A stretch of DNA of 63,740 nucleotides, counting the filler, from Chrysochromulina tobinii (taxonomy: Eukaryota), in NCBI GenBank assembly GCA_001275005.1. It is 6 parts of 6 records of this genome, joined end to end, with 100 filler letters (N's around TTAATTAATTAA, not from the genome) between each part and the next. Parts side by side here need not be neighbours in the genome. Positions count along the whole stretch, not along the records: positions 18,444 to 33,445 come from JWZX01000518.1; positions 33,546 to 44,327 come from JWZX01000520.1; 4 more parts are not named here. One strand, 5' to 3'. Below, one piece after another: positions 18,444-44,327 of this stretch (within the stretch, counting starts at the first letter, position 1; each line of letters opens with the position of its first letter). The notes beneath the pieces were generated by a model, which was not told the origin of the DNA, did not search any database, and saw only the letters and a program-made list of their open reading frames with translations. The position numbers and the translations under genes are program-made.

Positions 18444-20854
18444 AGACGGCGCGCCCCTCCTCCGCGCACCCGTCCGCGCCCCCCGCCGCGCCGAGCGCCG
18501 TCCCGAGCGGCGCCTGCCCGTGCCCGAGCGCCGTCTCGAGCGCCTCGTGGAGCGTGCGCTGCACCTCGCAAAGGCGCCGTGTCGAGCGCTCGCTCGAGGT
18601 CGACGCTCGTTCGAGCCGTGCCGAGAGGCTGCGCACGCGCGCCCGCTCGCGCGCCGTCTCGGCGACGGCCTCCGCCAGCTGCGCGGCACTGGCTGCGAGG
18701 GCTGCCGCGCACGTCGAGCGCAGCTCGCGTGCCGCGTCGTCGCGAGCGGCCAGGGCAGCCTGGGCCACCTCGAGCTGCGTGCGCGCCGTGTTGAGCGCCG
18801 CCTCCGCGTCCGCCTTCCCCTGCCGCGCCGTCGCGAGCGCGTCGGCCAGCTCGGCGGCGAGCCCCGCGACGGTGGCGCTCAATACGGCGCTCTCGCACTC
18901 GCGCTCGGCACGGGCGACCTGCAGGTCGGCGAGGAGGGCTTGGCGACCCAGCGCCGCCGCCGCCGCCTCCGCCTCCACCTCGGCGCACGCCGCCTGCAGC
19001 AGGGCCAGCGACAGCGCATTCGCGCTCGCGTCGTCGTGGGCGCCCACGTCGTCGTGGGCGTACGCGTCGTCGTGGGCGCTCGCGTCGTCGACGCCGTCCT
19101 CGTGCGCGCCGTCGTGAGCGCTCTGGAGGGCGGCGAGCGCGGTGCGCAGCGCCTCAACGCCGCTCCGCGTGGCCGTGGCCGCCACCCACTGGGCGCCCCG
19201 GGAGCCTCTCACGACAGCGAGCGTCTCGCGTTCCGCCTCCTCCCTCGCCGCCCTCGCCGCCGCCTCCGCCGCCTCCGCCGCCTCGGCCTGCTCGGTGGCC
19301 GCGTGCGCGGTCGCCTCCGCCGCCGCCTGCGCCTCCACCGCCCGCGCCCGGCGCACTTCAGCCTGCCGGGCGAGCTCCTCCACGTGACGCAGGCGCTTCT
19401 CGAAGATCCCTGCTCGCCCCTCCGCCTCCTCTCTGAGCGCCTCCGCCCTGGTCGCCCGCGCCTCTGCCTCCGCCGTGCGCTGCTCGAAGCTGCGGCGCTC
19501 GTCGACCAGGGAATTGAGGAGGACATCCTCGGCGGCCCGTGTGCGCCGATGCTGCCCGGAGAGGTGCAGAAGCTCCTCGAGCTGCACGCGCTCGGCCTGC
19601 TCGACACGGCGCGCACGCAGGGAGGGCAATGAGGGAGGCAATGAGGGAGGCAATTAGGGGAGGCAATTAAGGAGGCAATTAGGGAGGCAATGAGGGAGGG
19701 TCATCAGAGGCAATCAGAGGCAATCAGAGGCCATCAGAGGCCATCAGAGGCCATCAGAGGTCATCAGAGGCACTAACCTGCTCGGCACGGCGCGTCGCCT
19801 GCAGCTCGAGTAACTGCGCGCGCGTGGCGCTCAGCTCGGCGCTCAGCTCGGACGCCGTCCCGGGCGCCGTCTCGGGCGCCGTCTCGGTGGCCGTCGTGGT
19901 CACCGCCACCCCAGCCGATGCCTGCGACCCGTCAGGAGGCGATGCCTGCGACCCGTCGGAGGGCGATGCCGAGCTTGCGGGCGTTGTGGCGGTCCTCGGC
20001 GAAGGCGCGTCAGCGGCCAGCGCCGTGTCGAGCACCGAACATTCCTCGGCCGATGGCGCGAGTGCATCGGGAGGAGGCGCCACCTGGTGCTCGACACGGC
20101 GCTTGGCGATGGGGGCCGTCACCGCGGCCCAGCTCCGGGTGGCCGTGGGTGCGGCGGTGGCTGTGGGTGCGGCGGTGGCTGTGGGTGCGGCGGTGGCTGT
20201 GGGCGCGGCGGTGGTTGTGGGTGCGGCGGTGGCTGTGGGCGCGGCGGTGGTTGTGGGTGCGGCGGTGGTTGTGGGTGCGGCGGTGGTTGTGGGCACAGCC
20301 GGTGCCGAGGCCTTCTGCCGCTGAGTGGGCTTGAGCGGCGCGGAGGAGAGCGGCCGCTCGCCTGCGACGGTGGCGCCACTTGCAGTGCCACCTGCAGTGC
20401 CTTGTCCGAACACCTGCAGTGGCTCCCGGCCACCTGCAGTGGCGGGTGCCTTGCCCGACGTCCGATTCGGTGCTGCGAGGAGGAGCTGGGTAGGCGACGC
20501 CGAGCGCTGGTGCTTGCCTCCTCCGTTGCTCCCTCGGCCTCCCTTGCCTCCCCTGCTGGCGCGCTGAGCTTGGAAGCTCGCGTCGCTGCTACTGCTGCCA
20601 CCCTGGCCGTCCAGCAGGTGCTCGATCGCTGCAGTACGCGATTCAAGAGCGTGGGCTTGCGTGAGGGAGAGCAATCGCACAGCAGAGATTCAGAGGCTCG
20701 AGACGCTTTGGGACTGCGGGCTCGTACCGAGCTCCACGCCACCCTTCTGCTTGAGTGCACTCTCGATTGCGGACCGCTCCGCGCCCGGAAAGCACTCCTC
20801 TATCGTCCTCACGGCCGCCTCGAACTTGTCCTCGTGCTCTTCCTCGCGCAGCAT
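18444..20854 (-). CDS. CUE/UBA-like domain, Thr/Ala-repeat and coiled-coil protein (3' end truncated by contig end)
   Basis: Exons 20854-20728, 20628-19778 and 19596-18444. Splicing GT-AG intron 20629-20727 restores the CUE motif FPGAERSAIESALKQKGGVEL|AIEHLL. Intron 19597-19777 joins RRAEQ|AERVQ. Exon 3 is an Ala/Glu/Arg coiled coil. Confidence 0.7.
19597..19777 (-). other. Decamer-array intron (GT-AG) with 18-nt flanking direct repeat
   Basis: Sense array of CTGATGRCCT/CTGATTGCCT, then CCCTCATTGCCT variants; 19596-19613 matches 19777-19794 at 17/18. Confidence 0.88.
20145..20294. repeat. 18-bp coding tandem repeat (PTTTAA/PTATAA, about 8 copies)
   Basis: gtgggtgcggcggtgg(c/t)t units. Confidence 0.92.
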
Positions 20855-21116
20855 CCCGTCGGCGCCGCGCACTTTGGCCTTCGTGAGGGACGATAGGCCG
20901 ACATCTTCGCGCCCTGCTCGACAAGTTCCGGGCGAAGACGTGCCGGTTCACAGCCCGAGCCGTCCGCCCCTCTTATGCAAATTAGAGTTGGGAGGAGTTG
21001 AATGGCGTGAATTGAGTTGAGTGTCGTCAAACCGCGCAATTCATTCACGCCTCTAAAACGAGCAGGTTCCTGATGTTTTTTTTTGGCACCGGTTGCCCTC
21101 CTCGTCCACTCTGTCG

Positions 21117-24100
21117 ATGGAGGCGGAGGCGGCGACCAAGGTTCAGGCTGCGCAACGCGGCAAGGCCGCACGCAAGGCTCTGGGGGAGCAAGCCGCGGCA
21201 GCGCCTCCAGCTGAGCCTCCAGCAGCGGCGGTCGTCGCAGCAGCTTCCGACGCCGGCATCGAAGCAGCGGCTGCCAGCGACCCAGCTCCAGCTCCAGTCG
21301 CTTCGGGGGCACCAGTGGCGTCGGTAGCTGCGCCAAACCCTCCACTGTCACCGGCGGTGGCGAAGGCGATCAACGATGCTGAAGCCGCGGCAGACGCTGC
21401 CGTAGCCGCCGGCGAGTCTGCGGCCCAATCAGGCACCGGAGCGGGCGTGGCAGCACCGGTCGCAGGCACCGGAGCGGCAGCAGCACCGGTCGCAGGCGCC
21501 GGAGCAGCAGCGGCGGACAGCGCAGAGCCCCCCGGGACAGCAGCGGCTGCCACCAGCAGCAACGTACCGGTAAATCCTCCGTCATCTCGCCGCCGCCCGG
21601 CGACCGCCGGCAGCACTGCGAAGCCCCTGAGTAAATCGCTTCCTTCCAAGGCGATGCTCGGCACGGCGCTCCCATCCAAGGCGGCGCTCGGCAACAGCGC
21701 TCGGCAACAACAGCAGCTAGCGAAGACGAGCTCTGCCACCAAAGCCGTCCACCTGACCGATGGCGCTGGGCCCGGCTCGTACGACCCCGTCTGGCAGATT
21801 GATTCGGTGAAGAGCCCCGCGTACTCCTTCGGACGACCAAAGGACGCCCCGCCGAGTGCGCGGCAGCGCAAGCAGAGCGCCACCACGGCGCCCTTCATCG
21901 AGGCGGGCGCCGTGGCGGGCGCCGTGGTTGGCGCCGTGGCGGGCGCGCGGCTCGCCGCATCGCTCAACGAGCTCGATCGCGTCAAGCGCGTGCTCGAGGC
22001 CAAGGCTGCGGAGCCAGGCCCCGGTTCGCATGACCCCAAGTTCCTCAAGCAGCAGAACGCGCCCGCCTTTTCGTTTGGCTCGGCGCGCCAGCACGGACCC
22101 GTGAGCGTCTCGACGACGCCCGGGCCAGGCCGGTACGACCACTAATGACCACTAATTGCCATTAATTGCCACTGATTGCCACTGATTGCCACTGGCCCTC
22201 GCCACGGCAGGTACGACCCGACGGACATCAAGCTGACGCGCCAGCCTGCATTCAAATGGGGCGGCGGCATGGACAACTCGCCGCCAAAGTTCCGTCCAAG
22301 CATCAACGTGCCCAGCCCAGGCCCTGGTGAGTCCTGAGATGAGAAGCTCATCAGTGCCCTCTGAGTGCCATCTGATGACCGCTGATTGCTTCGCTCATCA
22401 GGTGAGTCCTGGCCCGAGAAGCTCACGATCGTCGTCGGAGCGGAGAGGAAGAAGAAGGGCGGCGGTTGGGAGCCCGTGCCGGTAGACCCGACTCCGCGGC
22501 CTCGTCCGGCATCGGCATCGGCATCGGCGGGGGCAAGCACGGCCCTCGCCACGACAGGTACGGGCTGCGAGCGTGGGTGGGGAAGCGCCGAGCGCCACTA
22601 ATTGCCACTGATGGCCACTAATGGCCACTGAGTGCCCTTAATGGCTCTCTCCCCTTGCGCAGCTGCGAGCCTCGATTGGGAAGGGCTGAGCGCCACTGAT
22701 TACCACTTATTGCCACTAATTGCCACTAATTGCCACTGCGCAGCTGCGAGCCTCGATTGGGAAGGGCTGAGCGCCACTGATTACCACTAATTGCCACTAA
22801 TTGCCACTAATTGCCACTAATTGCCACTAATTGCCACTGCGCAGCTGCGAGCCTCGATTGGGAAGGGCTGAGCGCCAAGCTACCGACCGGCAAGGACGCG
22901 GCCTCGTCCAAGACGCGCAAGGAGCTTTGGCATCGCTCCGACCCGAATCAAAACGGCTTCCTCTCCCTCGCCGAGATTGACGAGATGATCGGCGCGCATC
23001 TACGCGCCGTGGTGGGCACGTACAAGTTCGCCGCCCCGTGGTGGCATCGGCAGCTCGCCCGAAACGGCGCGCCGCCCAAGAAGCCGGACTTGCGCCTGGC
23101 CTTGGCTGCGACCCTCCGTTGTGGCGACGCCCAGGCCCAGCCGAGCGTGCCGACTGCAGAGCTTGTGCTCATGAGTCCGTTGGAGCTGCGGGTCGAGCGC
23201 AGCCAGTTCCGCACGCTGCTGATCGCGCTGCGTGAGTCCATCAAGAAGGCACTCGACATCAGCGAGGATGCTCTGGTCGACGCCGTCAAGAAGGCTCTCG
23301 AGGATGAGGCAAAGCCCCCCGAACCCCCACAGCTCCTCTCGCCACGTACCCAGGTGCCTCTAATGACCTCTGATTGCCTCTGATGACCTCTAATGTCCTC
23401 TGATGGCCTCTGATGACCTCTGACGTCTTCTGATGGCCTCTGAGGGCCTCTAATGACCTCTGATGGCCTTTGATGACCTCTGATGGCCTCTGATGGCCTC
23501 TAATGACCTCTGATGGCCTCTAATGACCTCTGATGGCCTCGAATGACCTCTGATGGCCTCTCGCCACGTGCTCAGGGAGCTCTCGCCGTGGGCGAATTCC
23601 TCATCTCCAAAGGGGGCGCCGCCGAGATAACCGCCGAGACGTCGCCGACCAAGCACGCGCCTAGTTTGGGAGGGCTCTATTTCCCGCCCGACGCTCCGCT
23701 GCCGAAACTGTGCTACAGCTACAAGGGGGCCGTCGTGCCCATCCAGACGACTTCCAAATTTGATCCGACTGACGTGACGTGCAAGTCCGTCAACCGGATG
23801 CACCGCACACACGAGATGCCGCCGGAGCATGCAGTGGGCGCCCCAGTCCTCGGCGGCGTGCCAGCTCGGAATCTCAAAAACTCCAAGTTCACACCGCACC
23901 ATCCGATCCCACCGATGGGCGCCCCTTACGGCCTCCCCTTTGCCCTCGGCCAGGTGCTTCTGAGGACCTCTAATGACCTCTGATGGCCTCTGATGACCTA
24001 CGGCCTCCCCTTTGCCCTCGGCCAGGTGCTTCTGATGACCTCTGATGGACTCTAGTGACCTCTGAAAGCCTCTGATGACCTCTGATTGCCCTCTCGGCCA

Positions 24101-24353
24101 GATTCTTCTCGAGGCCGCCAAAAAGGACTTCGAGGAGCGCTACGGCAAGGCCGACGTACCCAAACGGAGCGCGGCTGCTGGGCTGCTCACCGGCGCGGCC
24201 AAGGGCGCCGTCTCGGGCGCGCCGAAGCCGCCGGACCAAAAGGAGGGCGACTGGCAGGACGTCGATGCTGCTGCTGCTGCTGCTTCTGGCGTGCAGCCCG
24301 CCGCCGCCGCCGCCGCGCCCGATGGCGGCGCCGCACCGGCCGCGCCCACGTAA
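21117..24353 (+). CDS. Flagellar-type protein: IQ motif + SHIPPO/ODF3 PGPG repeats + calflagin-like EF-hand; 6 exons
   Basis: Exons 21117-22132, 22211-22326, 22402-22557, 22845-23353, 23576-23953 and 24102-24353 splice in frame. IQ: ATKVQAAQRGKAARK. SHIPPO: AGPGSYDP...PAYSFG, EPGPGSHDP...PAFSFG, TPGPGRYDP...PAFKWG. Calflagin-like: WEGLSAKLPTGKD...RKELWHRSDPNQNGFLSLAEID...VERSQFRTLL. Confidence 0.8.
22133..22210 (+). other. Decamer-array intron 1 (GT-AG)
   Basis: (A)CTRATTGCC array; 22128-22140 matches 22206-22218 at 12/13; removal gives PGPGR|YDPTD. Confidence 0.88.
22327..22401 (+). other. Decamer-array intron 2 (GT-AG)
   Basis: Degenerate decamers, ends CTCATCAG; 22326-22350 matches 22401-22425 at 21/25. 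Confidence 0.85.
22558..22844 (+). other. Decamer-array intron 3 (GT-AG) containing repeated copies of the acceptor plus exon start
   Basis: TTGCCACTAA arrays; a 40-nt block at 22656-22695, 22737-22776 and 22838-22877, of which only the last copy continues into coding sequence. Confidence 0.85.
23354..23575 (+). other. Decamer-array intron 4 (GT-AG)
   Basis: About 20 units of CTGATGRCCT/CTAATGACCT; 23335-23354 matches 23557-23576 at 18/20. Confidence 0.92.
23954..24101 (+). other. Decamer-array intron 5 (GT-AG) with internal copy of the exon end plus donor
   Basis: 37-nt exact copy of 23927-23963 at 23999-24035; acceptor ctcggccag (24093-24101) equals 23945-23953. Confidence 0.9.
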
Positions 24354-24904
24354 ATCTCCCAAATCTCCCGCGGGAGCGCAGAGCAGTCGGCGCAGAGCCT
24401 GGCACACTGGGCGCCATGCTGGGCGCGGACGGAGCTCGGAGGCGGGTGACGTGGCGCATGGCGGCCCAAAATCGTCCACGTGTCAGCTCAGCTCTCCGAG
24501 GTGTCAGCTCACTGCTCAGCCTGTTGTCACATGTCAGTCTGGCTGTGGGACCGAAACGAATCTCGCCCCCAGGACATGAAGCGCTCGGGCCCGCGCTTGA
24601 GTGAGAACAAGTTCAAGTGAGGAACGAGATGAATCTGAGACGCGACGGGGGACTCGTCGGCCCGCGCGAACTTTCGTTTGGTTTTTGTTTCATCTGAAAA
24701 TAGTACACAGCGGCGCGCGGTACACGTCCTCGGCGGCACGCGGCATGTGGCGCCGAGTTAGTGCCGAGCTCGACCCGCGACCGGACGGGACCTTCGCGAC
24801 GAACCGCAACCCCCGGCGGGAGCCTCGAGGGGAGCCGCGGGGCCACAACCCGGGTCGTCGCTTCCGAATCCGATCTCCGATGGGATCTCCGAATCCGTGT
24901 TTCG

Positions 24905-27267
24905 TCACACCGGGCAGAGCGCGGGCAGCGGCTCGGGTGGCTCAAAGTGCGCGCACCAGAACTCTTCGCCCCCCTCCTTCCTCCAGCCGCGCCGGATGGT
25001 GTCGGCATCGAGCCATCCTTTGAGCTCGCTCAGGCACGGCTGGTAGCACTTGGCGCACCACGACGGCGGCTTGAGCAGCGCGGGGATCAGCTGCGCCAGC
25101 CGGCGCGCGCCATCAGCCTCGAACGTCTCCGCGCCACCGAGACCACACAGCAGCGCGCGTGTGTGCTCGAGGCGCAACACGCGCGCGCTCGCGTACGGCG
25201 CCAGCGCGCGGCGCACGGCGACCGCCGATTGACCGAGTGGCAGGCGCAGCGCAGCACGGCCGGACGGCTGGCCGCCGCCCTCGGTCGCGGCCGGAGCGTC
25301 GTCCTGAGCGCCGCCCTCGGTCGCGCCGCCCTTGGTCGCGCCGCCGCCGTCGGCGCCCACAGCAATCTCGCCAGCAATCTCGGCCACAGCAATCTCGACG
25401 ATCTCGCCAGTGCCCTCGAGTGGCTTCAGGAAGAGGTGGTCCTTGTATGGGAAGCGCTTCTCGTTCCACTCGAACGGCGAGAGGACGTGGTCCATCGGGC
25501 AGACAAAGGGCACGTACTGGCCGTCCTGGGCGCCAGGGTACATGCAGCCAAAGTGGAAGATGTCATCGGAGCCCGACCAGAGACGATCACAGTAGCATGC
25601 CCAACGCGGCAGCACGAGCGTCCTATTGAGCACGAGAGCGAGCGCCAGGGCGTCGCGCAGCTCGGCGACGTACGCGCGCAGGGCAAGCACGTGGACGCCG
25701 ATGTTGGCGGCACTCTGCCCCTTGGCCTCAAAACCAGCCACTGCTGCCCGCACCGCCGGTGGCAGTTGATGATGGGCGCCGCCGCCCTTGCCGCCGCCGC
25801 CGCTGCTGCTGCTGCTGCTGCTGCCGGCTGGTAGTCCGACAGCGAGGTACCTTGCATCGGCAGGCTCAGGTGGGTCAGATCTCCACAGGCCCGCCTCGCG
25901 AAACCGTTGAGCCTTGGCGAGCTCGTCGTGGTGGTCGAGGCTGTAGGTGGCATGCACGGCAAAGGGCGCGGGCAGCGCCGCCGCACGAGGCGCGAGGGCG
26001 GCAGACTGCGCCATCGGGGGAGCCACCGGAGCAAGCATTCACAGTCACAGGCACATTCACAGACTGCGCCATCGGCGGAGCCACCGGCGGCTCTCTCAGT
26101 GGCACTCGATGGCACTTGTGGAGGCACTCAGGTACGGGCACTCCCGCCGGCACAGCTGAGGCGCACCTGCACAAAGTATCCATGGCCGTGGAGGAACAAT
26201 GCAAGTGGGAGAGCTCCTAGCGTCACGTTAGCTTTGGGCGAGTACACCGTGCGCCCGCCGCCATGTGGCACCTTCAGCCCGGGATAGAACTTCTCATCAC
26301 GCACCATCCGGTTGAACACCTGCTGGTCCGACGTACAGCAACGGCCAGGGTTGCAGTCGCCCGGCCTTCCAGCAGGGCATGCACGCTCCACTACGCTCGC
26401 GTGCCACGCACGCGCAAAGCGCTTGCCCGCGGCGGTCGCGCGGATGAGCAGCAGCCCCGTGTTGAAGGTGCCGCCCGCCGTGTATCCCACCCCATTCGCA
26501 GCCTCCTCGCGAGGCGACATGTTGTCGGTGGAGACGGCCACGTCGGCGGCTTTGAGGGACGCGCACGAGAAGGCGCCACGGGGCCAGCGAGAGGTGGCGG
26601 CGGCGGAGGAGGTGGTGGTCGTCGTGGCGCCCGCGTCCGCGTCCGCGTCCTCGTGCGCGCATGCCAGATACGGCATCGGGCTGCGCAGCCATGCCACATC
26701 CACGTCCGTGTGGAGCACGTCGAAGCCCAGAGCCACCACCCGCGCCACCTCACCCGAACGCATCTGCGCAAAGCTCATCCAACTGCCCGAGGCGTGCGCA
26801 TTCGAGCCGTCGAGCGCGTAGCCAGCCTGCTTGGACAGCGGCGTCTCGTACACCGCCACGCTCTGCCTCGCGAGAAGGGTGAACACGGCGCGATCCACAG
26901 CGCCAACCACAAACGGGATGTCGGCAGCACGCGCGTGCGCCACGAAGTTGATCAGCATCTGGCGAACGCCCGAGTTGCCAAACGTCAGCATCACAAGCCC
27001 GCGGCCCGCGGGCACTGCGAGCGCCAGCGCGTCGCTCAGTTCCCCTGAGAGGAGAGGTTGTGGCGGCGGCGGCGGCGGCACGAGCACCTCGGGCTCGACT
27101 GCGCCTCGTGCCCCTGTGACGGCGATGGGCTGCCGGCGCTGCCCCGCTGGCTGCAGTGCTGAGGACAGCTCCAGCACCGGTGCATGCAGCAGCAGTGCGC
27201 GGCGAAGAGCTGTGACCATCAAGACGGCGATGCCGAACATAGCCACGTGCGTGATGCCGCACTTCAT
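24905..27267 (-). CDS. GT77 nucleotide-diphospho-sugar transferase, XEG113/RRA arabinosyltransferase-like; 2 exons
   Basis: TM anchor; LGFDVLHTDVDVAWLRSP (DxD), FNTGLLLIR, DQQVFN, HGHGYFVQ|...PFAVHATY...KAQRFREAGLW, LRDALALALVLNRTLVLP...CYCDRLW...PFVCPMDHV. Intron 26006-26166 (GT-AG). Confidence 0.85.
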
Positions 27268-27728
27268 ACGAACCACGGCCCGCACAAAGTGTGAATTTGC
27301 TGTTAACACTCGGATTCCCCCGCCCCGAACCGTGTTAAGAACATATGCGAAATGAACAGTGGGACGCCTGTTGTGTCCCTGGTGGTGGATGAAAGGCCTT
27401 CTCGCTTCTCTGTAGGCTCCGGATCGCACCCGACCGGGCACACCGATCACTCATCACTGACCGATCACACGACCGTCGGGGAGGCGCACGCATGCATGTG
27501 ACAGCATCGATCATGCTCTGTTCCTTTTACTATTCATAAGGGGCTTGCGTGCCAACCGGGACTCGGTCCGTTGAAAGCCGTACACACTGGGGCCGCACAT
27601 AGGCCGCACATCTACAGTCCACGTACGCCGGGCGGCACGGCCGCGCAACTACAGTCAGTACGGGATGCCGCCGGCACAAAGATAACTATGGTAGAACTAT
27701 TCGTAGAAACCGGCGCGCCAACCTGTGC

Positions 27729-27768
27729 TTACCTCGAGCGCATGCCCGGGCGCTGCGACTCGCGTGCA

Positions 27769-27812
<44 letters not shown>

Positions 27813-31942: not shown

Positions 31943-32149
31943 CATGCGCCCTCCACAGGGCAAATCGATTGCATGCGCCCTCCACAGGGCAAACCGATTG
32001 CATGCGCCCTCCACAGGGCAATCCGATTGCATGCGCCCTCCACAGGGCAATCCGATTGCATGCGCCCTCCACAGGGCAAACCGATTGCATGCGCCCTCCA
32101 CAGGGCAGACCGATTGCATGCGCCTCTCCACAGGGCAAACACCGATTGT
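31943..32149. repeat. 29-bp minisatellite, about 7 copies
   Basis: catgcgccctccacagggcaaaccgattg units at 31943, 31972, 32001, 32030, 32059, 32088 and a degenerate unit at 32117. Confidence 0.95.
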
Positions 32150-32235
32150 GCACGCCATGCCATGCCACGCCATGCACCACGCCCACCGCGCCGCCCGCGC
32201 GCCCGCAGAAAATGCGCCCCGCTCTCTCAAGCCCT

Positions 32236-33445
32236 TCACGGGCGCGCACGCAGCCTCGCCAGCCTCGACTTGAGCGCCGCCACGTTGAGCGACGGGCTTG
32301 TCGTCCCCGCCACCCCTGCGGCCGGTGCCCCCTCGGCGACAGAAGCGCCCATCCCAGCGCCCATCCCTGCTTCAGCACTGCCCATCCCTGCTTCAGCACC
32401 GACCGGGGCGACGGCCGCTGTCGCAACGGCACCGGCGGCAGGGGCGGTGGCGGCGGCGGCGGCGCGAGCAGCGAGAGATCGTGCAGCTGCGCGAGCACGG
32501 AGGGCAGGCTGATGGTGCCGAGCTTGTCGACCTCTCGCGGCATGGCGAGCGCCTTGAGCAACTTGTGCATGCACTTGAGCAGCAGCCGCGCGAGCTGCCG
32601 ATCCGCCGGGCGGCGCGCCTGATGAGGGAGGCAATTGGAGGTCATCCGGCGCAATCACACTGATGAGGGAGGCCATTGGAGGTCATCCGGTGCGATCAGA
32701 GGCGATCAGAGGCGATCAGAGGCGATCCGAGGCCTTCCGAGGCCTTCCGAGGCCATCCGAGGCCATCCGAGGCCATCCGAGGCCATCCGAGGCCATCAGA
32801 GGCCATCAGTGGCCATCAGTGGCGCGCCTTGTCGAGCAGGCAGCACAGCAGCGCGGTCAGCGTGGCGGCGCGCGGTGTGAACTCAAGGAGCTTGAGCATC
32901 ATCAGGTTGATCGACTTGAGCAGCAAGTTGGTCTTCATCTCCTCGCCAAAGTCGTTGAGCCGCCGGTCGACGAGCCGATCGAGGAGCTGGAGCACGAGGA
33001 ATCGGATCTGGGGCTCATGCAGCTCGCGCATGAGGGGCTTGCACACGAAGAGGTGCATGACCATCAGGTTCGCGAGCCGCCGGATGACGGTGTTGTCGCT
33101 CGTGTCATTCAGGAGCCAATTCAGCCGCGTGCAGACCGCTGCGAAGAGGGCGGTCGCGTGGTTGTGCGGCTGGAGCAGCACCGTCGGGTCTGCCTCCACC
33201 TGCGCCTGCAGCGTCGCGATCGCCCCACGGACGGTTTCGCTCTCCGCGTCCGCATCCTCCAGCGCGCTGATCGCCTCAAGCACAGGCGCATCCGCACGCC
33301 CAAGCGCGCGCGCGAGGGCCACCGTCTTCTTGGGCACGGGGCTCGGGGTGAGCGACGCCCCCGCCGCTGCCGCCGCCGCCTGCGCGTCCTCGAGCAAGTC
33401 CATCGGGCGCTTGGTTGCGGACGAGCTCGTCGTCGTCGTCGACGC
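32236..33445 (-). CDS. XMAP215/ch-TOG/MOR1 microtubule polymerase, C-terminal part (5' truncated)
   Basis: LLDRLVDRRL...LLKSINLMMLKLLE...LTALL, then LARLLLKCMHKLLKAL...SVLAQLHD, and terminal NVAALKSRLARLR. GC-AG intron 32619-32827. Apparent frame break near 32450-32470. Confidence 0.7.
32619..32827 (-). other. Decamer-array intron with GC donor
   Basis: AAG|GCGCGCC...(GATGGCCTCK)n...CTCCCTCATCAG|GCGCGCC; 9-nt exact repeat at 32612-32620 and 32821-32829; joins LDK|ARRP in frame. Confidence 0.85.
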
Positions 33446-33868: not shown

Positions 33869-34527
<659 letters not shown>

Positions 34528-34839: not shown

Positions 34840-35747
34840 ATGAAGCGCTCTCTCGAGGCCGTGTCCTCTGCTTCGGCCTCAGTTCCACCTGCACCCGAGG
34901 CTTCATCAGTACCTCCCGACGACCTGTCCGATTTGCCTGCTTCGTGGGCGTGCGTGTGCCTTGGCGTTTCGGGAAGCGTCGCTGCCGTCAAGGCCCCCAG
35001 AGCTCGCGCTTGCATTCCTGCGCCACGGCGTCAGTGTCGACCTCGTCGTCACCGGAGGCGGCGCACTCGCTGCTGCTATCGTCCTATCGCGGCGAACAGC
35101 CGTGGGCAAGGCTTGAGGCAATTGCGGCGGCGACTGCCCTGCACGGAGGCGTTGACGCGAACGACCAAGGCTGCGGCGGCAACGGCGGTGGCTCGGGTGC
35201 CACGCCTGCGGCGGCAGCCACAGCATCGCCGCCGTCGCTCCGTATCTTCCGCGACGCCGACGAGTGGCGCACCTTTTCGATCGTCGGCCAAGACCCCGTC
35301 GTGCACATCGAACTCGCCAAGCGCAACCAACTGCTGCTGATCGCACCACTGTGCGCCAACACTCTCGCGGCCGCGGCGCTCGGCCTGTGCGGCAACCTGC
35401 TCGGCTCGGTACTGCGCGCGTGGTACTACGATCTGGACGCCGCCTTTGCGACGCCGCTCGCGGAGCGTTACGGCGCGCACGCCGTTGACAAGCCCGTGCT
35501 CGTGGCACCCGCCATGAACACCTTCATGTGGCACCAGCGCGTCACGGGCTCGCACCTGGCGGTACTCGAGGCGCGAGGCGTGCGTGTGGTGCCGCCAGTT
35601 GCCAAAAAGCTCGCGTGCGGCGACACGGGCGTCGGCGCGATGGCCGAGGTCCCGCAGGTGGTCCAGGCCGCCGTTGAGGCGCTCCGGAAGCACACGCAGG
35701 CGCAGGAGCAGGCCGTCCGCGAAGGTAGGCCGCCGTTTGTCCCGTGA
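34840..35747 (+). CDS. PPCDC: Phosphopantothenoylcysteine decarboxylase (HAL3/CoaC flavoprotein); two apparent +1 indels
   Basis: LGVSGSVAAVKAP, DADEW, PVVHIEL, LLIAPLCANTLA...GLCGNLL, APAMNTFMW, KKLACGDTGVGAM. The frame is restored by removing one C at 34994-34998 and one G at 35054-35055. Confidence 0.88.
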
Positions 35748-35859
35748 GGTTACTGGCGCGCACGGGCGCACGGAGACACCGGCCGCGTTTTGAACTTTGT
35801 AAATTGAGTATCCCTCTTATACATGTAATTCACATGTATTGAATTGTCTCATGTCATGT

Positions 35860-36006
35860 TCAAGTCAAGTCTCGTTACATGTACACAACAAATTGTAGTA
35901 TTGTGGGACGGACAAGATTATGGTTGCACTGGCTAACGGAGCACAATGTGGACAGGTACACGATAGAAGATGGACTTGACTTGACTTGGCTTGATTTGAG
36001 ACTTGA
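35860..36006. repeat. Short AT-rich element bounded by inverted (CAAGT)n / (ACTTG)n repeats
   Basis: tcaagtcaagtctc at 35860 versus gacttgacttgacttg...gagacttga at 35973-36006. Confidence 0.6.
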
Positions 36007-36062
36007 TTCACGCCACGCAGCCGAGACGTCCTGTGGCTCTGGCTTCTGGATCTTATTTTCAC

Positions 36063-37250
36063 ATGACGGACGCAGCGGCGAGGGCGGAGGCGGCAAAGAC
36101 CGCTGGCAACGCGGCCTTCACTGCGAAGAATTACGACGAAGCTATCAAATTCTTCACAGAGGCCATCGAGGCCGATCCCACAAACCACGTCTTGTACTCC
36201 AACCGCTCGGGCGCCTACTGCGCCAAGGCAGACTTCAAGGCGGCGCTGTTGGACGCCAACGAGTGCATCAAACTGAACGAGCAGTTTGCCAAAGGGCACT
36301 CGCGGCGCGGCGCGGCCTACTTCGGGCTAAAGAATTGGCCGCAGTCGCAGGCGGCCTATGAGCGCGGCCTGGAGCTCGACCCGAACTCGGCCGCAATGAA
36401 AGCAGAGCTAGAGAAGGTGAAGCTGCAACGTGACCCGAAGGCACGCGCGGCGGCAGAGGCGGCGGCGGCGGGCGCGGGTGCCACTGGCGGTGGCGGCTAC
36501 CAGCGCTTCCCGGGCGACCGGGGCGGCTTCCCGTCCTCCGGCTCTTGTGGTCCGCCCACAAACCCGACTGCCAAGTCAGCATCGACAGCACTCGGCGGTT
36601 TCGCGCTGGTGAGCGGCTTCCTGTACATGCTGCCCCTCTTCCCGCGCTACGCGATACCCATGTACAGGGGCTGCGTGATCTGCCTGTTGCTCCTTAGCAT
36701 GCTGCACCTCGTCTCGGCCTTCGAGCTGAAATTCTCGACGCTTGTTGAGCCCAAGTTTAAGGCCGCTCAGGAGTCGCAAGGGTTGATGCTGCTCTTCATG
36801 CTGCTGATCCTGCCGCCCGTGCCGTTCGCGCTCATGCCCTTCCTCGCCCTCGCCCTGCTGCACTCGGTCCACGCCGTCAAGGAGCCGGCACAGAAGCTGC
36901 CCGGCCCACTCTCCACCTTCGTCGGCTCTCGCGTCGCCCAGCTCTGCACTCCTGAGGGACAGTTCCAAATCGCCTCTTTTGGCGCCGTCTCCGAGGTCAT
37001 CTTGGCGGTGATGACCCCGGTGCTTTGCCTGGTCCAGGGCTTCCGCGCAGCCCTCCTTGGCTTCTTCTTCTTCCAGTATGTCGTGCGCCGCTCCCGTTCG
37101 AATGAGATGACCATGAAAGCGCTCGAGCTGCTCACCGAGCGCTCCGATAGCGTCTTCCGTCATCGGTACGTGCCCGCGCCGCTGCAGATCGTGTACTCGA
37201 ATGCCAAGAAATTCATCGGACGCGCCTCGACGTCGACGTTCTTCCAGTGA
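36063..37250 (+). CDS. STI1/HOP-type TPR domain fused to TMEM33/Pom33-like membrane domain
   Basis: KTAGNAAF...YDEAIKFFTEAI..DPTNHVLYSNRSGAY...KGHSRRGAAY (TPR x3); multi-TM C-terminus ending FQYVVRRS.SNEMT...DSVFRHRYVPAPLQIVY..AKKFI, similar to TMEM33. Confidence 0.75.
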   Translation: MTDAAARAEAAKTAGNAAFTAKNYDEAIKFFTEAIEADPTNHVLYSNRSGAYCAKADFKAALLDANECIKLNEQFAKGHSRRGAAYFGLKNWPQSQAAYERGLELDPNSAAMKAELEKVKLQRDPKARAAAEAAAAGAGATGGGGYQRFPGDRGGFPSSGSCGPPTNPTAKSASTALGGFALVSGFLYMLPLFPRYAIPMYRGCVICLLLLSMLHLVSAFELKFSTLVEPKFKAAQESQGLMLLFMLLILPPVPFALMPFLALALLHSVHAVKEPAQKLPGPLSTFVGSRVAQLCTPEGQFQIASFGAVSEVILAVMTPVLCLVQGFRAALLGFFFFQYVVRRSRSNEMTMKALELLTERSDSVFRHRYVPAPLQIVYSNAKKFIGRASTSTFFQ

Positions 37251-37923
37251 GCTGGGCGCGCGGGGACGGCGGGGCGGCAATCGGCGGGCGGGCGGGTCGC
37301 AAAAGATTTCTCGGGTCATGGCCTGCGCGGCCCGGGAGCTACAGAATCGACGCCCTCTCTGCCGGTGTGTGAATCTCCCTCGCTCGCAAACAGAGGCGTT
37401 GTGTTCTCACAAAGTCAAAGCTGGAAAGCAGGGACACCTGTGACCTGACGACCCGTTTCACCTTAAATTATAAATCGCACCTTTTCTTTTCGACCGGCCC
37501 CGAACGGCGACGCGGCCCGGCGCGACCGAAAAGCATGCACGTTGTAATCGCTCGACGGCATTTAGTATATCCACGGCGCTTGGCGATTCGGATCGCCCGT
37601 CGATAACCATAAGAGCGGCGTCCTTTTTTGAAATTTGAATGCGACCAAGTGCCAACAAAAGATTAGTCTCCAAGATAAAACTCAAATCCTCAAATGTATT
37701 TATGTGGAGTACATTGACCTAAAATGGTACATGTAGTCCCTGTTGTGTCTCTGTAGTGCCGTTCATGTAACCGACAAAAACACGTTTTCGTAGTGAACAA
37801 CACACCGCGAAGGACGGGAGCTTGCACAGCTTCGTCGACGTTCGGCTTCGGAACAAAGCCGCACGCAGCCGTGCTTGACCCGGACCTCAGGACTCGAGGG
37901 ACACAGGTAGCCGACACAGTCAG

Positions 37924-39627
37924 ATGCAGCAGGTGATGCAGCATGTCGCTGAAGAGTCAGTAGTCAGCCCGGACCTTTTTGCCGACTATTTATCGTCGAC
38001 ACCAAGAGTCGACGACAGCCCGGAATTTCAGTACCAGCGGCTCATCCTCGAGCTTCAGCTGCTTGAAGACCTACCACCAGAGAATCCTCCTGCACATGAT
38101 GAGGCTGATGACAAAGCTTTCGCAATAGTGCATGAACAACTTCAAGCACTACGATGTGGTGGTCGGGCGGCAAAGTCAGAGGCGCCAATGCGTCTGCGGC
38201 GGCCAGAGCCGACGGCGCGAGTGCAAACAGCTCCGGAGCCGGCAGTGGCCAAGTCGGCAGCGCTACCAGTGCGGGCGGTTCGAGCGCCCGTAGTGGCACC
38301 GACCCTAGCAGCAGAACCGAACGTGAATGTAGATGAGATCCTGTCCAGCCTCAGCCAACTTGCGCAAGCCGTTCAGCAAATGCGCGAGCTCATTCCACGT
38401 GCGGCGGCCTCCGACGGACGCAGTGTCGCGCAACAAGTCCGCGACACTTTCTTGCCGGGGGGCATGTGCATCACTCCCGACCGTATGCGCAAGGGCCTGC
38501 ACTACATTCAGGGCAACCGCGGCAGCCAGGAGCGCCGGGGCAGCAGCAGCAGTTCTTCCATCCGGGCAGCAGCGCACGAGGCGTCGACCCCGAGCGTGCT
38601 CGTCGAAAGCAATCCGAGCGCGGCTACCCATTCGTCGGCGTCGACCAGCCGCCCCAAACTTGGGATGGCCTCTTTCTCGCCTGTGGGCATCTCGCCCCAC
38701 CGCCTGCGAGCAGCGCCCATGTCCCCCGGCGCGTTTGCGGGATCGGACCCTTTGCGCCTGCCGGCGACGCCATCGCCAGCTCCGCCGTTGCCGGTGATGA
38801 ACATACCGCCGCCAGTGCCGCCACCGATGAGATACATGCAACAAGCATCGTGGCCGACGTCATCGATGGCGATGCCGCCGCCGCCGCAACGGCAGATGCC
38901 GCAGATGCCGCAGATGGCACAGCTGCTGCCTTCGCCCATTCAAAACTCAGCAGCGCAGCCGCCACCGCCACCGGTGTGCGGATGGGCAGCCACTTCAGCG
39001 TTGCCGCCACACTGCAGCTATGCCTACGTCCCCAGCCTGCCGTGTTCCTTCCCGGGCCAGCGTAGTGTGTCAGATGTGACCTTGAGCGTGCAGTCGAACG
39101 CGGCCAATCGCAACGAACTGCTGAGGCGGCTCGAGCAGCTCGAGAACATCCCTAAGCCCTTCAAGGATCAGCAGCAGTGCCTTATGGAAGTCGAGCGTCT
39201 CGCCGGGCTTGCCAAGCGCATGCGACACGAGGCGACCATGCAGCGAGCTCCACCGACCCTGGCCATGGCTGGACCGCCCACCGTTTCCATGCCGGCTTCG
39301 GTATCGGCCTCGAAACCACTGCCCCATCCGCCCGTCGTGGCGCAGCATCTGGCCGACGGCTCGCCACGTGTGGCGAGCCTGCTCTGCCCTTCCTCTGTCC
39401 CACGACAAGCTCGCATCAACATACGAGAACAACACAAGGACGTCGCATCATACAAGAACCTCGTGAACCTCGAGGATGTACTAGGGGAGGAGCCTGTGAA
39501 CCTCGTGAAGCGTGCATGCCAAATGTCCAAGGAGTTGACGGACGAGATTGCCAGGTTGAGGCAAGTCGTATCGCCGTATCAAGCTTCCGCATCAAGCTCA
39601 ACCGCATCGGCATCGGCAGCTAACTAA
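37924..39627 (+). CDS. Hypothetical Pro/Ser-rich protein with short coiled coils (567 aa)
   Basis: Long ATG-initiated ORF flanked by AT-richer intergenic DNA; no recognisable domain. Confidence 0.65.
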   Translation: MQQVMQHVAEESVVSPDLFADYLSSTPRVDDSPEFQYQRLILELQLLEDLPPENPPAHDEADDKAFAIVHEQLQALRCGGRAAKSEAPMRLRRPEPTARVQTAPEPAVAKSAALPVRAVRAPVVAPTLAAEPNVNVDEILSSLSQLAQAVQQMRELIPRAAASDGRSVAQQVRDTFLPGGMCITPDRMRKGLHYIQGNRGSQERRGSSSSSSIRAAAHEASTPSVLVESNPSAATHSSASTSRPKLGMASFSPVGISPHRLRAAPMSPGAFAGSDPLRLPATPSPAPPLPVMNIPPPVPPPMRYMQQASWPTSSMAMPPPPQRQMPQMPQMAQLLPSPIQNSAAQPPPPPVCGWAATSALPPHCSYAYVPSLPCSFPGQRSVSDVTLSVQSNAANRNELLRRLEQLENIPKPFKDQQQCLMEVERLAGLAKRMRHEATMQRAPPTLAMAGPPTVSMPASVSASKPLPHPPVVAQHLADGSPRVASLLCPSSVPRQARINIREQHKDVASYKNLVNLEDVLGEEPVNLVKRACQMSKELTDEIARLRQVVSPYQASASSSTASASAAN

Positions 39628-39928
39628 CCTCGGCCTCCGTGCCAACCACACTGTGCAACAACAACATTTCAGCCGCCCCACGCCACAGCCCACACCCTAT
39701 CTTCTTCAGTGATACCAGCTGAGTGCGGACGGACGTAGTACTACGCACTACGGCGTGGTTGTGGGTAGAGCTCTACAGCTGTACCTGGGAGTAAGTCTAC
39801 AGCTGTACCTGGGAGGCTGGGAGATCGAGATGCCACGTGGAGCGCGGCGGTGCAGGGAAACATAGGAGAACGTGACTCGCAGGACTCGGCGGGCGAGCCG
39901 AACGGCGCTGAGTCGGGCCCTCGAGCGG

Positions 39929-39971
39929 ATGGTTTCGTAATGGTTTCGTAATGGTTTCGTAATGGTTTCGT
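39929..39971. repeat. 11-bp tandem repeat ATGGTTTCGTA, about 4 copies
   Basis: Directly visible. A second short duplication, ctacagctgtacctggga, lies nearby at ~39773-39813. Confidence 0.9.
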
Positions 39972-40474
39972 TGCACGTGTCGACGCTCCGCGGTCGGGGC
40001 TCGAGGGCGGGGGCGGGCGGGGGTCTCCGCCCGCATGGTCGTGTCACATCTCGACGTGTGCTCGGAGCTCGTAGCGCTAGCGGTTCGGTGCGGAGCGGGT
40101 CCGGACGCGGACCGTCCGGTCGCCGGGCCGCGGCGCCGCACGCGGCCGCACGGGCGCGCGGCGCGGGATTGTATCCGGGATTGCGCGATTCGGATTCGAA
40201 AGACGAAACGGAGTGGAAATGTGTTCAGGCGTGCGCGGCCGCTAGGTGTAAACTAACCATGCATCCAACTCACAACCCATGGTTATGATATTCGATCACC
40301 GGACCGGCGTATAATGATCTTATCGGCGGCATATAGCTTATACGTTATAGGGCGCGTCGCCGGTCGCGGATTCGGGATTGACGGTTGCTTCTCTCGATTC
40401 AGGCGAGTGATCATATCCCTGCCACCTCTCGGACGCCGATACTGACGTCATCGGTGATGCCAGAGCCTTCACCG

Positions 40475-42031
40475 TTAGGTTTCACCTTGAGGCTTCGCAC
40501 CGTCGTAATTCTCCGCACACAGAAGCTCCTTAGATCGCAGATGCTGCCGCCTCTCGGCACGCTCCCTCGCCGAGAGAGGTCGCGTCGCCATCACCACCCC
40601 ACGGAAGACGGTGCGCGGCGGCGGCAAGATGAGCGAGTACGGGTAGGGCACCGAGCGCGCCGAGAAGGCGCTCCGGAGGCCGAGCTTGGCCGTGGCCACA
40701 AAGGGATACAGCCGCAGTCTCCGCTCGTACCGCTGCGCCGCTGCGAGGTTGATGGATCCCCAATGCTCCGTGAGCGAGCGACGGCGTCGGTCGTCAGCGT
40801 TGAGCCGGACGACGGGTGCGCCGGCGGAGGGCGCGACCGCCGGCGAGAGGAAGGCAGGCAGCGACGCAGAGGGCGCGGAGGGCGCGGCGGCGGCGGACGC
40901 ATGCTCGTGGGCACGCCTCCGAATGAAAAAGCACATGTGGGTGTGCAGCGCAAGCACCCTGTGGAACATGAACTCATCGGGCGGCGCTCCGATGACGCAA
41001 GGGGCGAGAAGCGGCGCGCCGAAGCGCGTGGGCACGTCCGCATACGCCGTAGTAAAGGCGAGGTTCCACGAGACGTAAAGGTCCGTCCACTCCTTTTCGT
41101 GCGGCAGGTGCATGCGGACCGCCCTGCGCCCATCAGTCGAGAGACTCGCGCCGCGGCCGGGCCGGTCGGCGGACGGCTGGCCTGGGCGCGCGACGCATAG
41201 CGCCAGGCCGGCCGCCGCATTGGACGTGAAGCCGAGCTTGAGGTCCTGTAGCACTGCCTCAAGGATGTTGAACGGCAGCCCAAGATGCCCAAAATTGGAA
41301 GGTAGGTTCGCAAAGCGCCGGTGCTCGACGAAGCGTTCGAGGGTCATCTCGACGGTGCAGAGCTTGGCGAGCTCAAAGAGTCCGAGTGGCCGCCACCAGC
41401 CCGCTGTGCTACGCACCGCCTCGCGCAGCCGCGCGTACACGGCCGCGGCGAGCTCCGCGTCCGCGGCGAGCGCACGCGTCACCGCGTCGAGCAGCAGGAT
41501 GTAGTGCGCGAGCTCGTACATCTCGACGTCCTTGACGGGTTCGAGCTCATCAGAGGATGTTGAGAGCTTGTGCGCGAGTTGGCACAGCAGCGGATTCGTG
41601 GCAGCGACGTTGGAGATGCTGCGCACAAAGACACGCAAGTCGGGAGCATCCTCACTCTGCGCTGCCCGGCCAATCGCGCTGACCATACTAGGAGGCAACG
41701 CTGAGAGAAGCGGCTCGTATGTGTCGAGATCAAGCTCGGAGAGGAGAGATTTCATCACATTCGGGTCGGCTGGCACTGCGTGCCTTGAAGCCGCACGCAT
41801 GCGCTGTCGCCGGGCGTGCCGCAGTAAGGAGCCCTCGACAGAGCGCGTCAGACCTTGCAGAGCGCGATTGCCGTCAACTGGCGTCACGAACGGTGCCGTC
41901 GAGGGCAAGGTGACTGTTAGAGGCACGCGCATAGTCACAAGACGGCGGAAGGACAATGACGTCGGAAGGGGCGGCCCCAATGAAACTTTTGCACCGGAGC
42001 AAGCAAGAAGCCTGCATCTTTCCCGGTTCAT
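40475..42031 (-). CDS. DUF5692-like membrane protein with N-terminal extension
   Basis: FELAKL, NILEAVLQD...NAAAGL, WTDLYVSWNLAF, LLAP and HRVLAL recall DUF5692 motifs (NILEAV..D, W...Y..WN.A, R...L). Start codon uncertain (possibly the ATG at 41932). Confidence 0.5.
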   Translation of the reverse strand: MNRERCRLLACSGAKVSLGPPLPTSLSFRRLVTMRVPLTVTLPSTAPFVTPVDGNRALQGLTRSVEGSLLRHARRQRMRAASRHAVPADPNVMKSLLSELDLDTYEPLLSALPPSMVSAIGRAAQSEDAPDLRVFVRSISNVAATNPLLCQLAHKLSTSSDELEPVKDVEMYELAHYILLLDAVTRALAADAELAAAVYARLREAVRSTAGWWRPLGLFELAKLCTVEMTLERFVEHRRFANLPSNFGHLGLPFNILEAVLQDLKLGFTSNAAAGLALCVARPGQPSADRPGRGASLSTDGRRAVRMHLPHEKEWTDLYVSWNLAFTTAYADVPTRFGAPLLAPCVIGAPPDEFMFHRVLALHTHMCFFIRRRAHEHASAAAAPSAPSASLPAFLSPAVAPSAGAPVVRLNADDRRRRSLTEHWGSINLAAAQRYERRLRLYPFVATAKLGLRSAFSARSVPYPYSLILPPPRTVFRGVVMATRPLSARERAERRQHLRSKELLCAENYDGAKPQGET

Positions 42032-42620
42032 TAGGTCATGTAATCATGACTACATAGATCATCAATGACATCAATGGTTCCTGACAGCGTTCCTGAAGGG
42101 TGTACAATGTACTGAGCGTGCCCGGTGTGTCGGCCCACCGCCACCGCGTGCCACGTCCGCACATACCACATGAGAGGAGAACAACACCGGTCTCCGCTCT
42201 TTGCAACATGGGCTCTTACCGGGCTCCGCTGCGCGTACACACGCGGCTCGCGGGAGGGTCGACTGTCCTCTTTGTACTGTGTACGAGCTACGACGTACAT
42301 GAAACCGGCGACGGGTTTTCTCGTAGGTTCCTCGTTCGCGGCTGCCGCCCGGTCCCGCCGCCTACTCAAAGGTCTGCTGACTCCGGTTGTGCGCCTGCAC
42401 GCGCACCACCAAAAGCACAACAGCCCTTCAACATCATCATGCCAAGCCGGCCTGGCTCTCGCTCGTCGACCTACATCTGCAGCCGGCCAGCGCCCCCACG
42501 CCTGCCGCCATGCTCTCTCGCGCACACGGGGCGGCGCGCGAGCAGCTGTCGAGAAATAGCGTGCTGTGGGGAAGGAGAGGTGTTTGACTCTCGCATGGGT
42601 GAGCAGCATGCTGCATGCGC

Positions 42621-44327
42621 TCATTTGTTGTACACCTTGCGATAGAAGGTTGAGTAGTCGAAGCTGCCCTCAACCTCTGCGAGGCTCTCCCGCAGGAACG
42701 CCGCATGGGCTGGGTTGAAGTACTTGTCGAGCTCCTCGGCGGGCAGCACGTCCTTGCCGTTGCTGAGCGTGCGGAAGGCGCCATTGAGGGCGTCGGGCGT
42801 GTCGTCCACCTTGTAGATCTTTTGCATCAATCGGATGAAGGCATCGAACGAGATCGTGCCCTCCGTAGCCCCTGTGTCCGGGTTGCGCCCGGTGCCGTCC
42901 GCAAACTTGTCGAACTCTTCGTCGAGGTCGTTCTCATGGTCCAACGACTTGATGGCGGCACCGAACTTGAACTTGTTGAGGTTCCCCGACTTGTCGCGGT
43001 CAAAGTGAGTAAACGCCTTCTCCAGCTCCGCCATCTGCTCGGGCGTGATGTCCATGGTCGCACGCGCGAGCTGTCCGCAGACCAGGGAGAGCTTGTCGCG
43101 CACGAGCTGCTCGAGCTGCTCGAAGGCCGATTTGAGCGACGCCATCGACTGGCGCGTGTACGGGTTGTCCATCTCGGCCATGGCGAAGAGCGCATCTGCG
43201 AGCTCCTGCGCGGGCGCAAGCTGCTCGGCGCGCTCAGCCGCCCTGGTCGCATATTCCTCGAGCTGCGTCTTGCGTGCATGGCCTGCGGCAATCGAGTCCG
43301 CATCGTCCGAAGAGATGAGTAGCGTCGGCGTGCTCGCCTCAAGCTTCGCCTTCTCCGCGGCCAGGAAGGTGAGCGCCGTGCTCGCGCACTCGGCGAAGCG
43401 GCGCTTCTGCTGGTCCGCCTCCGAAATCTTGACGCGCTCCAAAGCGAGCATTGAAGTGCGATCGTCCGCTGCGGCGACAGCGCCGTCGAGCGCGCTCCGC
43501 AGGTCCGCGGCCACGAAGCGCGTGTACGGATTGGGCCCGCTGCTCGCGAGCGTCGCCTCGAGCGCCGCGAGCGCCTCGCACTCGGCGCGGCGCGTGCGCT
43601 CCTCCGCGCGGAACGTTTTGAGCGCCTCGTCGATCCCATCGGCCTCACGCACCGTCTCGATCTGCATCACTTCGGACATGGCGTCCGTCGTCTCCTCGAG
43701 CCATCGATTGAGCATCTCGGCGCGCTTGGCCACGGCGAGGCGGCCCTCCTCGATCTTCGTCTGCTGCGCGAGGACTTCCTCGAGATCGGCACGGTACGCG
43801 CCGGCCGCTTCGACGAGTGCCGCGAAGGAGGAATCGATCTGCTCCTTGCGCTTGGAGAGAAGGTCCTGTCGCGGGCTTCCCATCGCCGTGAGCTCATCGT
43901 AGAGCGCGCCGAGTGCACGGCGCGACTCGTCGCGGCTCGCCTGATGAGGGAGACCATCAGAGGTCATCAGAGGTCATCAGAGGTCATCAGAGGTCATCAG
44001 AGGTCATCAGAGGTCATCAGAGGTCATCAGAGGCAATCAGAGGCAATCAGGACTCGTCGCGGCTCGCCTGCTCCTCTTCGTACGCCTTGAGCAGGTTGAG
44101 GCGCGCCATCGCCGCAGAGATCGAGTCAAGCGACGCTTCGCGAGCAAAGCGCATCTTGCGCTGCGCCATAGCGGCGCTGAACACGTCGTACGCTTTGCGC
44201 GTGCGCAGGACGGCGGCCGTGGCGGCGGTGGCGGCGGCGGCGGGCTCGGCCTCGCCTGGCGATCTGATTCCGAAGTTCTCCTTGAGCGCGTCGAAGAGGC
44301 TGTCGAGCAGCGATTTGCTCCTGGGCG
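42621..44327 (-). CDS. Alpha-actinin-like protein (spectrin-like repeats + EF hands), 5' truncated
   Basis: NPYT motifs; ITPEQMAELEKAFTHFDRDKSGNL...ISFDAFIRLM...DTPDALNGAFRTLSNGKD...FDYSTF; GC-AG intron 43941-44067 joins YEEEQ|ASRDES. Confidence 0.88.
43941..44067 (-). other. Decamer-array intron with GC donor and exact 20-nt flanking duplication
   Basis: 43924-43943 is identical to 44051-44070 (sense CAG|GCGAGCCGCGACGAGTC); near-perfect CTGATGACCT array; ends CTCCCTCATCAG. Confidence 0.92.

Follow-up and report, generated by a model that had tools for sequence, protein, structure and literature searches.

Tandem-decamer introns with junction duplications in Chrysochromulina tobinii: a probable mark of recent, recurrent intron gain

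The stretch of DNA analysed here (63,740 nt, hereafter the window) belongs to the haptophyte Chrysochromulina tobinii (GCA_001275005.1) and consists of six contigs joined by N spacers. Its guanine-plus-cytosine (GC) content is near 65% and introns are few, in line with the 63.4% GC and about one intron per gene given for Chrysochromulina (PMC4580454; this and the other papers cited by accession or DOI are drawn on in excerpts). Eight introns in four genes, named below by their lower coordinate, are the subject of this report: an earlier note, made from the sequence, had described them as arrays of a decamer whose flanking junctions are duplicated exactly one intron length apart, and had proposed an intron-generating system. 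Together with the introns at 20629..20727, 26006..26166 and 34137..34357 (RPS23), they make up the 11 introns of the window. Five of these 11 are concentrated in a single 2.4-kb SHIPPO/EF-hand gene identified by Pfam (rough P 0.0008, with gene lengths estimated), and intron 43941 lies in an alpha-actinin-like gene, as denoted by Pfam and by the member names of its protein clusters. The scanned exons of the other two host genes had no Pfam match, and one host gene is presumably a ch-TOG gene; the CUE label for the gene with intron 20629 is that of the earlier note.

In seven of the eight introns, sequence of the exon bordering one end is directly repeated at the other end, and these seven fall into two types. 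In type A, the intron starts with a shared donor and its end is a copy of the upstream exon end, from which the AG is obtained. Thus, 19597..19777 (minus strand) has its own donor and its last 17 nt copy the exon end at 19778-19794; 23354..23575 (plus strand) ends with a 17/19 copy of the exon end at 23335-23353; and 23954..24101 (plus strand) has a 9/9 duplicate and, inside the intron, a 72-nt stretch in which exon end, local donor and array are copied. In type B, the start of the intron copies the downstream exon, which supplies the GT or GC. The first 8 nt of 22133..22210 (plus strand) copy the downstream exon start; 22327..22401 (plus strand), a decayed array, begins with a 20/24 copy of the downstream exon start and finishes with CTCATCAG; 32619..32827 (minus strand) has a GC donor from the duplicate (9/9) and presents its CTCCCTCATCAG end twice; and 43941..44067 (minus strand) takes its GC donor from a perfect 20-nt duplicate, with the exon copy at 43924-43940. 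The remaining array intron, 22558..22844 (plus strand), holds inside it two exact repeats of the acceptor together with the exon start, in units of 81 and 101 nt. Two side observations concern these genes. Directly at the acceptor of intron 22327, the exon start (22402-22410) reads CAG|GTGAGT, a consensus donor and a possible recursive or alternative splice point; and the gene at 18444-20900, which hosts 19597, has a further intron past the window contig (2045-2181, minus strand, of the same-species locus L007), with another decamer variant and a weak junction match (score 6).

All counts of the earlier note were reproduced, with coordinates and boundaries: 17/18 nt at lag 181, 12/13 at 78, 21/25 at 75, 18/20 at 222, 9/9 at 148, 9/9 at 209, and 20/20 at 127. 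For the junction score, taken on the diagonal one intron length apart, the small sample comprised 13 introns with flanks and two inserts, and 208 non-cognate donor/acceptor pairs served as null. The seven duplicated introns scored 9-20, against a mean of 3.8 in the non-cognate pairs, which had a single outlier of 19, and the null was stable without the loci L004 and L011 described below (mean 3.7, 156 pairs). Summed over all eight introns under study, the cognate score was 95 versus a null mean of 30 (0/100,000 draws). The sole outlier is a match of the 3' end of intron 22133 with the exon end and donor at 22541-22562, which may mean that the template was local or that the introns share a second end, and which makes the donor of 22558 less certain.

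Donors are GT or GC and acceptors AG in all eight introns, and their removal yields open frames of 807, 725, 312, and 525 amino acids that are broken when unspliced; the three introns of length 3n carry in-frame stops. Moreover, the six introns at 19597-24101 are identical in four other assemblies of essentially the same strain, and intron 32619 in 3/3 other assemblies, whereby an assembly artefact is excluded. For 43941, nine gene calls from other assemblies open with its translated 3' end.

Of the eight introns, 22327 is no clean decamer array, with no tandem-repeat match and a lag-10 identity of 0.28. The two introns regarded as ordinary in the earlier note must be separated, since the RPS23 control 34137..34357 (minus strand; score 0) has no array, no duplication and no array similarity, whereas 20629..20727 (minus strand; score 1, no junction duplication), in the same gene as 19597, resembles a decayed array at P 0.003-0.01 versus shuffles. 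In all, 10 of the 11 window introns have array character in some degree. Arrays have the same orientation relative to the gene in all eight introns, and within the decamer unit CTRAY, a branch-point-like motif, occurs 67 times in sense versus 6 in antisense. Units differ within and between introns; some variants are common to neighbours (22133 with 22558; 23354 with 23954), and near-pure runs of one unit are found at 43941 (7/9 units) and in L004. In the array units, AT-rich and GC-rich halves follow each other in turn at 5-base intervals, and CpG is missing from the main variants. Nucleosome-positioning sequences show a similar alternation and CpG lack, and such a composition might explain the 10-base period.

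Besides the arrays, the introns share their ends, with a GTGCCTCTGAT-like donor and a CTCCCTCATCAG acceptor, and both 5'-truncated and 3'-truncated forms are found. The common 3' end reported earlier for several introns proved to be CTCATCAG on three of the eight, all of them among the four of type B. Units and ends are common to the four genes and also to L004 and L011, denoting many similar introns at unrelated sites. As the earlier note had claimed, there are no terminal inverted repeats (TIRs) in the eight introns (end extension 0-4 nt; among the arm pairs listed, none lies at both intron ends), and duplicate length varies from 9 to 25 nt, unlike a fixed-length target-site duplication (TSD). 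An Rfam search of the window gave no match. At the array joins, microhomology totals 16 versus 5.8 expected (P 0.006, n=8), with just 3/8 joins reaching 3 nt.

Four of the eight sites could be compared with relatives, of which two appear empty (23354 and 43941) and two are shared (22558 and 23954). For the five-intron gene, the relative termed B is a cluster of 40 gene calls, 15 of them listed, with 83% identity in exon 4 and 100% in exon 5 apart from gaps. Among the listed calls, 14/15 finish on a peptide translated from the beginning of the 23954 array intron, and many relative-B calls open with the translated end of the 22558 intron; therefore, the calls come from unspliced DNA and both introns are common to relative B. 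Site 23354 is crossed without interruption by all 13 spanning calls among those listed. In the opposite direction, the seven codons at 23834..23854 (plus strand), with no insert in the window and in L005-L011, are duplicated in relative B around a 24-residue in-frame insertion, which occurs in 14/15 listed calls and begins by repeating the seven residues after it. We infer from these proteins an intron of 72 nt whose junction is duplicated over about 20 nt. A chimeric gene call (P0045), in which an unrelated dehydrogenase-like protein (labelled by eye) is fused to the relative-B insert and exon, suggests that the assembly went wrong at a sequence present more than once in that genome.

For 43941, 22 proteins from two clusters were compared (15 of 74 and 7 of 7): nine start with the translated intron end, six stop short of the site, and seven are contiguous. 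The site is contiguous in 6/6 spanning calls of a 96%-identical lineage. These six calls begin at nearly the same residue, about 200 residues upstream of 43941, on contigs of up to 6.8 kb, and do not give the roughly 1,060-amino-acid alpha-actinin-like protein; such a common start on long contigs points to an upstream intron, and hence to DNA. The seventh contiguous protein, P0060 (98.6% identity), may derive from a transcript or represent an empty allele. Six further homologs at 45-79% identity, each of which may be DNA- or transcript-derived, are also colinear. Nevertheless, distant homologs with alignments shown are likewise colinear across 23954, which is common to relative B, so that the colinearity of distant proteins is by itself no proof of absence. 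Altogether, three presence/absence differences (23354, 23834 and 43941) in two genes separate close lineages, as read from protein gene calls.

A further difference is an allele of the species itself. L005-L011 are loci of the window's own species, and a metagenome scan with the relative-B protein gave seven loci, all of this species. In allele L011 (one contig), the host 21-mer that is single in the window (23572..23592, plus strand) forms a perfect duplicate around 74 extra bases at the 23575 acceptor, which consist of array with a CTCCCTCATCAG end. This end is found at 32619 and 43941 and is unlike that of the local intron, which suggests that the insert was templated from elsewhere. The apparently empty sites at 23354 and 43941, the reciprocal insertion in relative B and this polymorphic insertion speak for the intron generation postulated in the earlier note. 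We consider that the feature is real and probably marks recent, recurrent intron gain.

Internal copying was a further component, seen in 23954, 22558, 32619, and 26006, and in L005, where an exon-end copy lies inside 23354. Near the 5' end of 22558, a copy of the exon, now decayed and displaced by about 7 nt, matches at 28/34 positions in the window and 30/34 in L005. The intron 26006..26166 (minus strand), absent from the earlier note, is a degenerate array in a nucleotide-sugar transferase gene, its boundaries set from reading frames; it has an internal copy of the acceptor junction and no long duplication (junction score 4).

Furthermore, the footprint is not restricted to arrays. At 17381-17460 of locus L007, beside an exon, lies an intron of 80 nt without array, whose junction duplicate matches at 21/23; it belongs to a stretch missing from the window assembly. 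The relative-B insert peptide does not read as array either, and its match to this intron is no more than suggestive (best of four segments, P 0.03). A duplicate around a non-array intron, together with the relative-B insert, indicates that duplication belongs to the insertion process and not to the repeat, and the earlier idea of a mechanism specific to pure repeat cargo was thus not sustained. The window assembly lacks 738 bases at 32460 that are present in L007-L009, owing to a collapse at a GCG repeat.

Among the options offered previously, break repair seeded by a repeat donor fits best, considering the duplications, the inferred empty sites and the local copying. We favour, with about an even chance of being right, the reading that introns were gained recently through break repair with existing introns as the template; at least two of the eight are likely recent gains. 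At a staggered DNA break, repair would fill the overhang and close the gap with sequence copied from a stretch of an existing intron: the broken end would pair over 1-5 bases with an array intron, either close by or at another place, copy 50-200 nt, and return at a shared AG or G, leaving one splice site from the template and the other from the duplicate. Selection would retain only inserts that splice without protein change, with template donor and host acceptor in type A, and host donor and template acceptor in type B. The same event beside an existing intron would leave internal copies of exon edges and no new intron, so that a single process, microhomology-primed copying at a staggered break, could yield new introns, extensions of old ones and internal copies. 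Later, slippage would enlarge the array, and array and duplicate would decay with age. The decamer would be a compact, AG-poor, branch-point-rich template, as one cargo of at least two. Background on templated insertions is given in PMC7407515.

Several observations weigh against this reading. Microhomology at the array joins is only 0-2 nt at five of eight, and the same unit variants occur in unrelated genes (cosine 0.65-0.70 among 19597, 23354, 23954 and 43941), so the signal of proximity is weak. Since two of the eight introns are common to relative B, not all eight are recent. The L011 allele comes from one metagenome contig, and assemblies may go wrong at arrays; L004, for example, appears to be a chimera across its array. 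Splicing at the junctions given here is deduced from reading frames and homolog colinearity, the empty sites are read from protein gene calls of relatives, and intron loss at 23354 in relatives is possible, where outgroups do not align. Finally, conserved 3' ends, variable 5' ends and duplicates of 9-25 nt fit target-primed reverse transcription equally well. By this route, which we judge unlikely while giving it real weight, intron RNA, or an RNA derived from it and resembling a short interspersed element (SINE), would be inserted with the enzymes of non-long-terminal-repeat (non-LTR) retrotransposons; priming at the 3' CAG with 5' truncation would produce type B, and internal priming with run-off to the 5' GT would produce type A. 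The common 3' end with variable 5' ends in 22327, 32619, 43941, and L011 and the exact coincidence of insert ends with intron termini would follow, and the duplicate lengths are near those of long interspersed element (LINE) insertions, about 7-20 nt. The window also holds an RNase H-like retroelement fragment (44873-47371, minus strand), likely of a retrotransposon, with an 833-codon open frame whose atlas neighbours are RNase H clusters (score 0.95) and which has no Pfam or PDB match; yet at its ends no array or shared end was noticed, apart from one isolated motif. The internal copies in 23954, 22558 and L005, which include exon sequence and the donor variant of the locus, call for local copying at the DNA level, and such copying by itself accounts for the anatomy; type A requires internal priming, its three inserts reversing the 3'-intact, 5'-truncated pattern; the window has no Rfam match; and clustering in one gene is not expected under retroposition. 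A wider proposal, in our opinion equally unlikely, is that ordinary spliceosomal introns reproduce themselves without transposon ends: excised RNA would be target-primed into exons, the decamer serving as a splicing cassette (donor variant, branch point, no AG), and the process would be ongoing, polymorphic in populations, responsible for most introns of the lineage, and filtered from introner surveys as low complexity.

The introns might instead be old, with unstable arrays that secondarily copy exon edges, as in the 'mirages' of amphioxus, and with precise losses of some of them in relatives, an explanation that we find improbable. Mirage-type internal copies in four of the 11 window introns, the widespread array character, and the sharing of 22558 and 23954 with relative B point in this direction. 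On the other hand, for the working donor to come from a duplicate exactly one intron length away, a duplication and a precise removal of the former boundary would be required every time; each of the three presence/absence differences in the two genes would need to be a loss, whichever lineage lacks the intron; and 6/6 distant homologs, some of them possibly transcripts, are colinear at 43941, whose perfect 20/20 identity implies a recent event. Still less probable, we believe, is a non-autonomous DNA transposon of the classic introner kind with ends obscured by repeat expansion. Introners do share the pattern of bringing one splice site along and co-opting the other from the duplicate, and a Chrysochromulina introner with no TIRs and 4-bp TSDs has been described (10.1101/2022.06.06.494994). 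Here, however, without TIRs and with duplicates varying from 9 to 25 nt, the array introns do not behave as classic introners; either end can be missing, and intron length (75-287) and units vary. Least credible of all, to the point of being very improbable, is telomerase-like reiterative synthesis of the decamer from a short RNA template at breaks, which the earlier note had put forward. Near-pure unit runs at 43941 and in L004 would suit it, but unit variants differ within and between introns, conserved non-repeat ends travel with the cargo, non-array cargo shares the footprint, and no template was found in the window.

Introns of Emiliania huxleyi reportedly contain strand-biased 10-11-bp tandem repeats and GC donors (work by Read and colleagues of 2013), and these repeats are not known to have been linked there to junction duplication or intron gain. 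Our literature search met no account of junction duplications in haptophyte array introns, with subscription papers and the introner-survey supplements, which may list related Chrysochromulina families, outside its reach; the excerpts of PMC4580454, PMC12480563, and PMC2784329 do not discuss such duplications. The closest parallel may be found in several known systems, each with its own differences. Neointrons of Daphnia pulex (PMC4202315) likewise present a direct repeat of the adjacent exon end, young introns often have internal repeats, and break repair has been invoked; their repeats are 4-12 bp (33 cases) versus 9-25 in the alga, and the excerpted text names no common donor family, whereas the algal filler is shared intron-derived sequence with ready splice signals. 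Introners (10.1101/2022.06.06.494994; PMC12130899; 10.1101/2020.10.14.339549) are also repeated families that carry one splice site, recruit the other and splice seamlessly; in them, TSD length is fixed per class (3-8 nt; 4 bp in the Chrysochromulina example), while the algal duplicates vary in length, the inserts can lack one end or the other, and their body consists of a variable tandem array. In tandem genomic duplication of AGGT (PMC3443670), one AG/GY copy similarly becomes donor and the other acceptor, but the algal intron body is not made of duplicated exon, since just 9-25 nt are doubled, around foreign cargo. Amphioxus mirage minisatellites (PMC3087553), proposed as a route to new introns, place copies of the exon-intron boundary inside introns, as in 22558, 23954, 26006, and L005; these are local tandem units, unlike the bracketing duplicates: in the alga, the arrays form a family of their own across the genome, and each whole intron is enclosed by one duplicate.

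The source of new intron sequence is a long-standing question, and a 2012 review tabulated few clear cases of intron copying to a new site (14) and of break-repair gain (5) (PMC3443670, Table 1). The pattern described here would be a variant of known intron-gain routes, with the mechanism deduced from sequence comparison. Each of the three differences between lineages comes with a long duplicate, and where DNA is visible the filler is recognisably intron-derived; consequently, donor and recipient could be traced genome-wide, and DNA and RNA templating distinguished. Intron birth by copying intron sequence into DNA breaks would then be a route testable in living populations, and, if true, would supply an origin for the short-period repeats of haptophyte introns. 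The systematic introner survey of 2022 removed low-complexity families (10.1101/2022.06.06.494994), so the decamer-array class would have been excluded from it and may be overlooked. In addition, gene prediction is affected by GC donors and decoy splice sites.

The decamer was also sought outside the alga. Its patterns gave 0, 2, and 0 matches in three scans of viral contigs, the two being one unrelated phage locus in two samples, and two matches in prokaryote genomes. One of the latter, L004, is a 1.4-kb contig in a bacterial genome bin with the same arrays at 977-1097 and 1411-1440; it is likely eukaryotic contamination, possibly chimeric across the array, and no other array contig was found in that bacterial genome. 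L004 was dropped as a complete intron, since the upstream gene is, as judged by eye, not carried on in the downstream part, and its ends alone were used. The phage contig (L001, 757-783) and the bacterial chromosome of the other match (L003, 5001-5028) contain short non-coding stretches of this decamer, probably through chance or convergence. The exon adjoining 32619 had no relative among viral contigs. Beyond the 3' end of that gene, at 31943-32140, lies a minisatellite with a 29-nt unit, whose copy number varies among assemblies. Lastly, in contrast to the nearby five-intron 2.4-kb gene, a HECT E3 ligase frame (WW, UBA and HECT domains) of 4,107 codons extends without introns over 725-13048 (minus strand).

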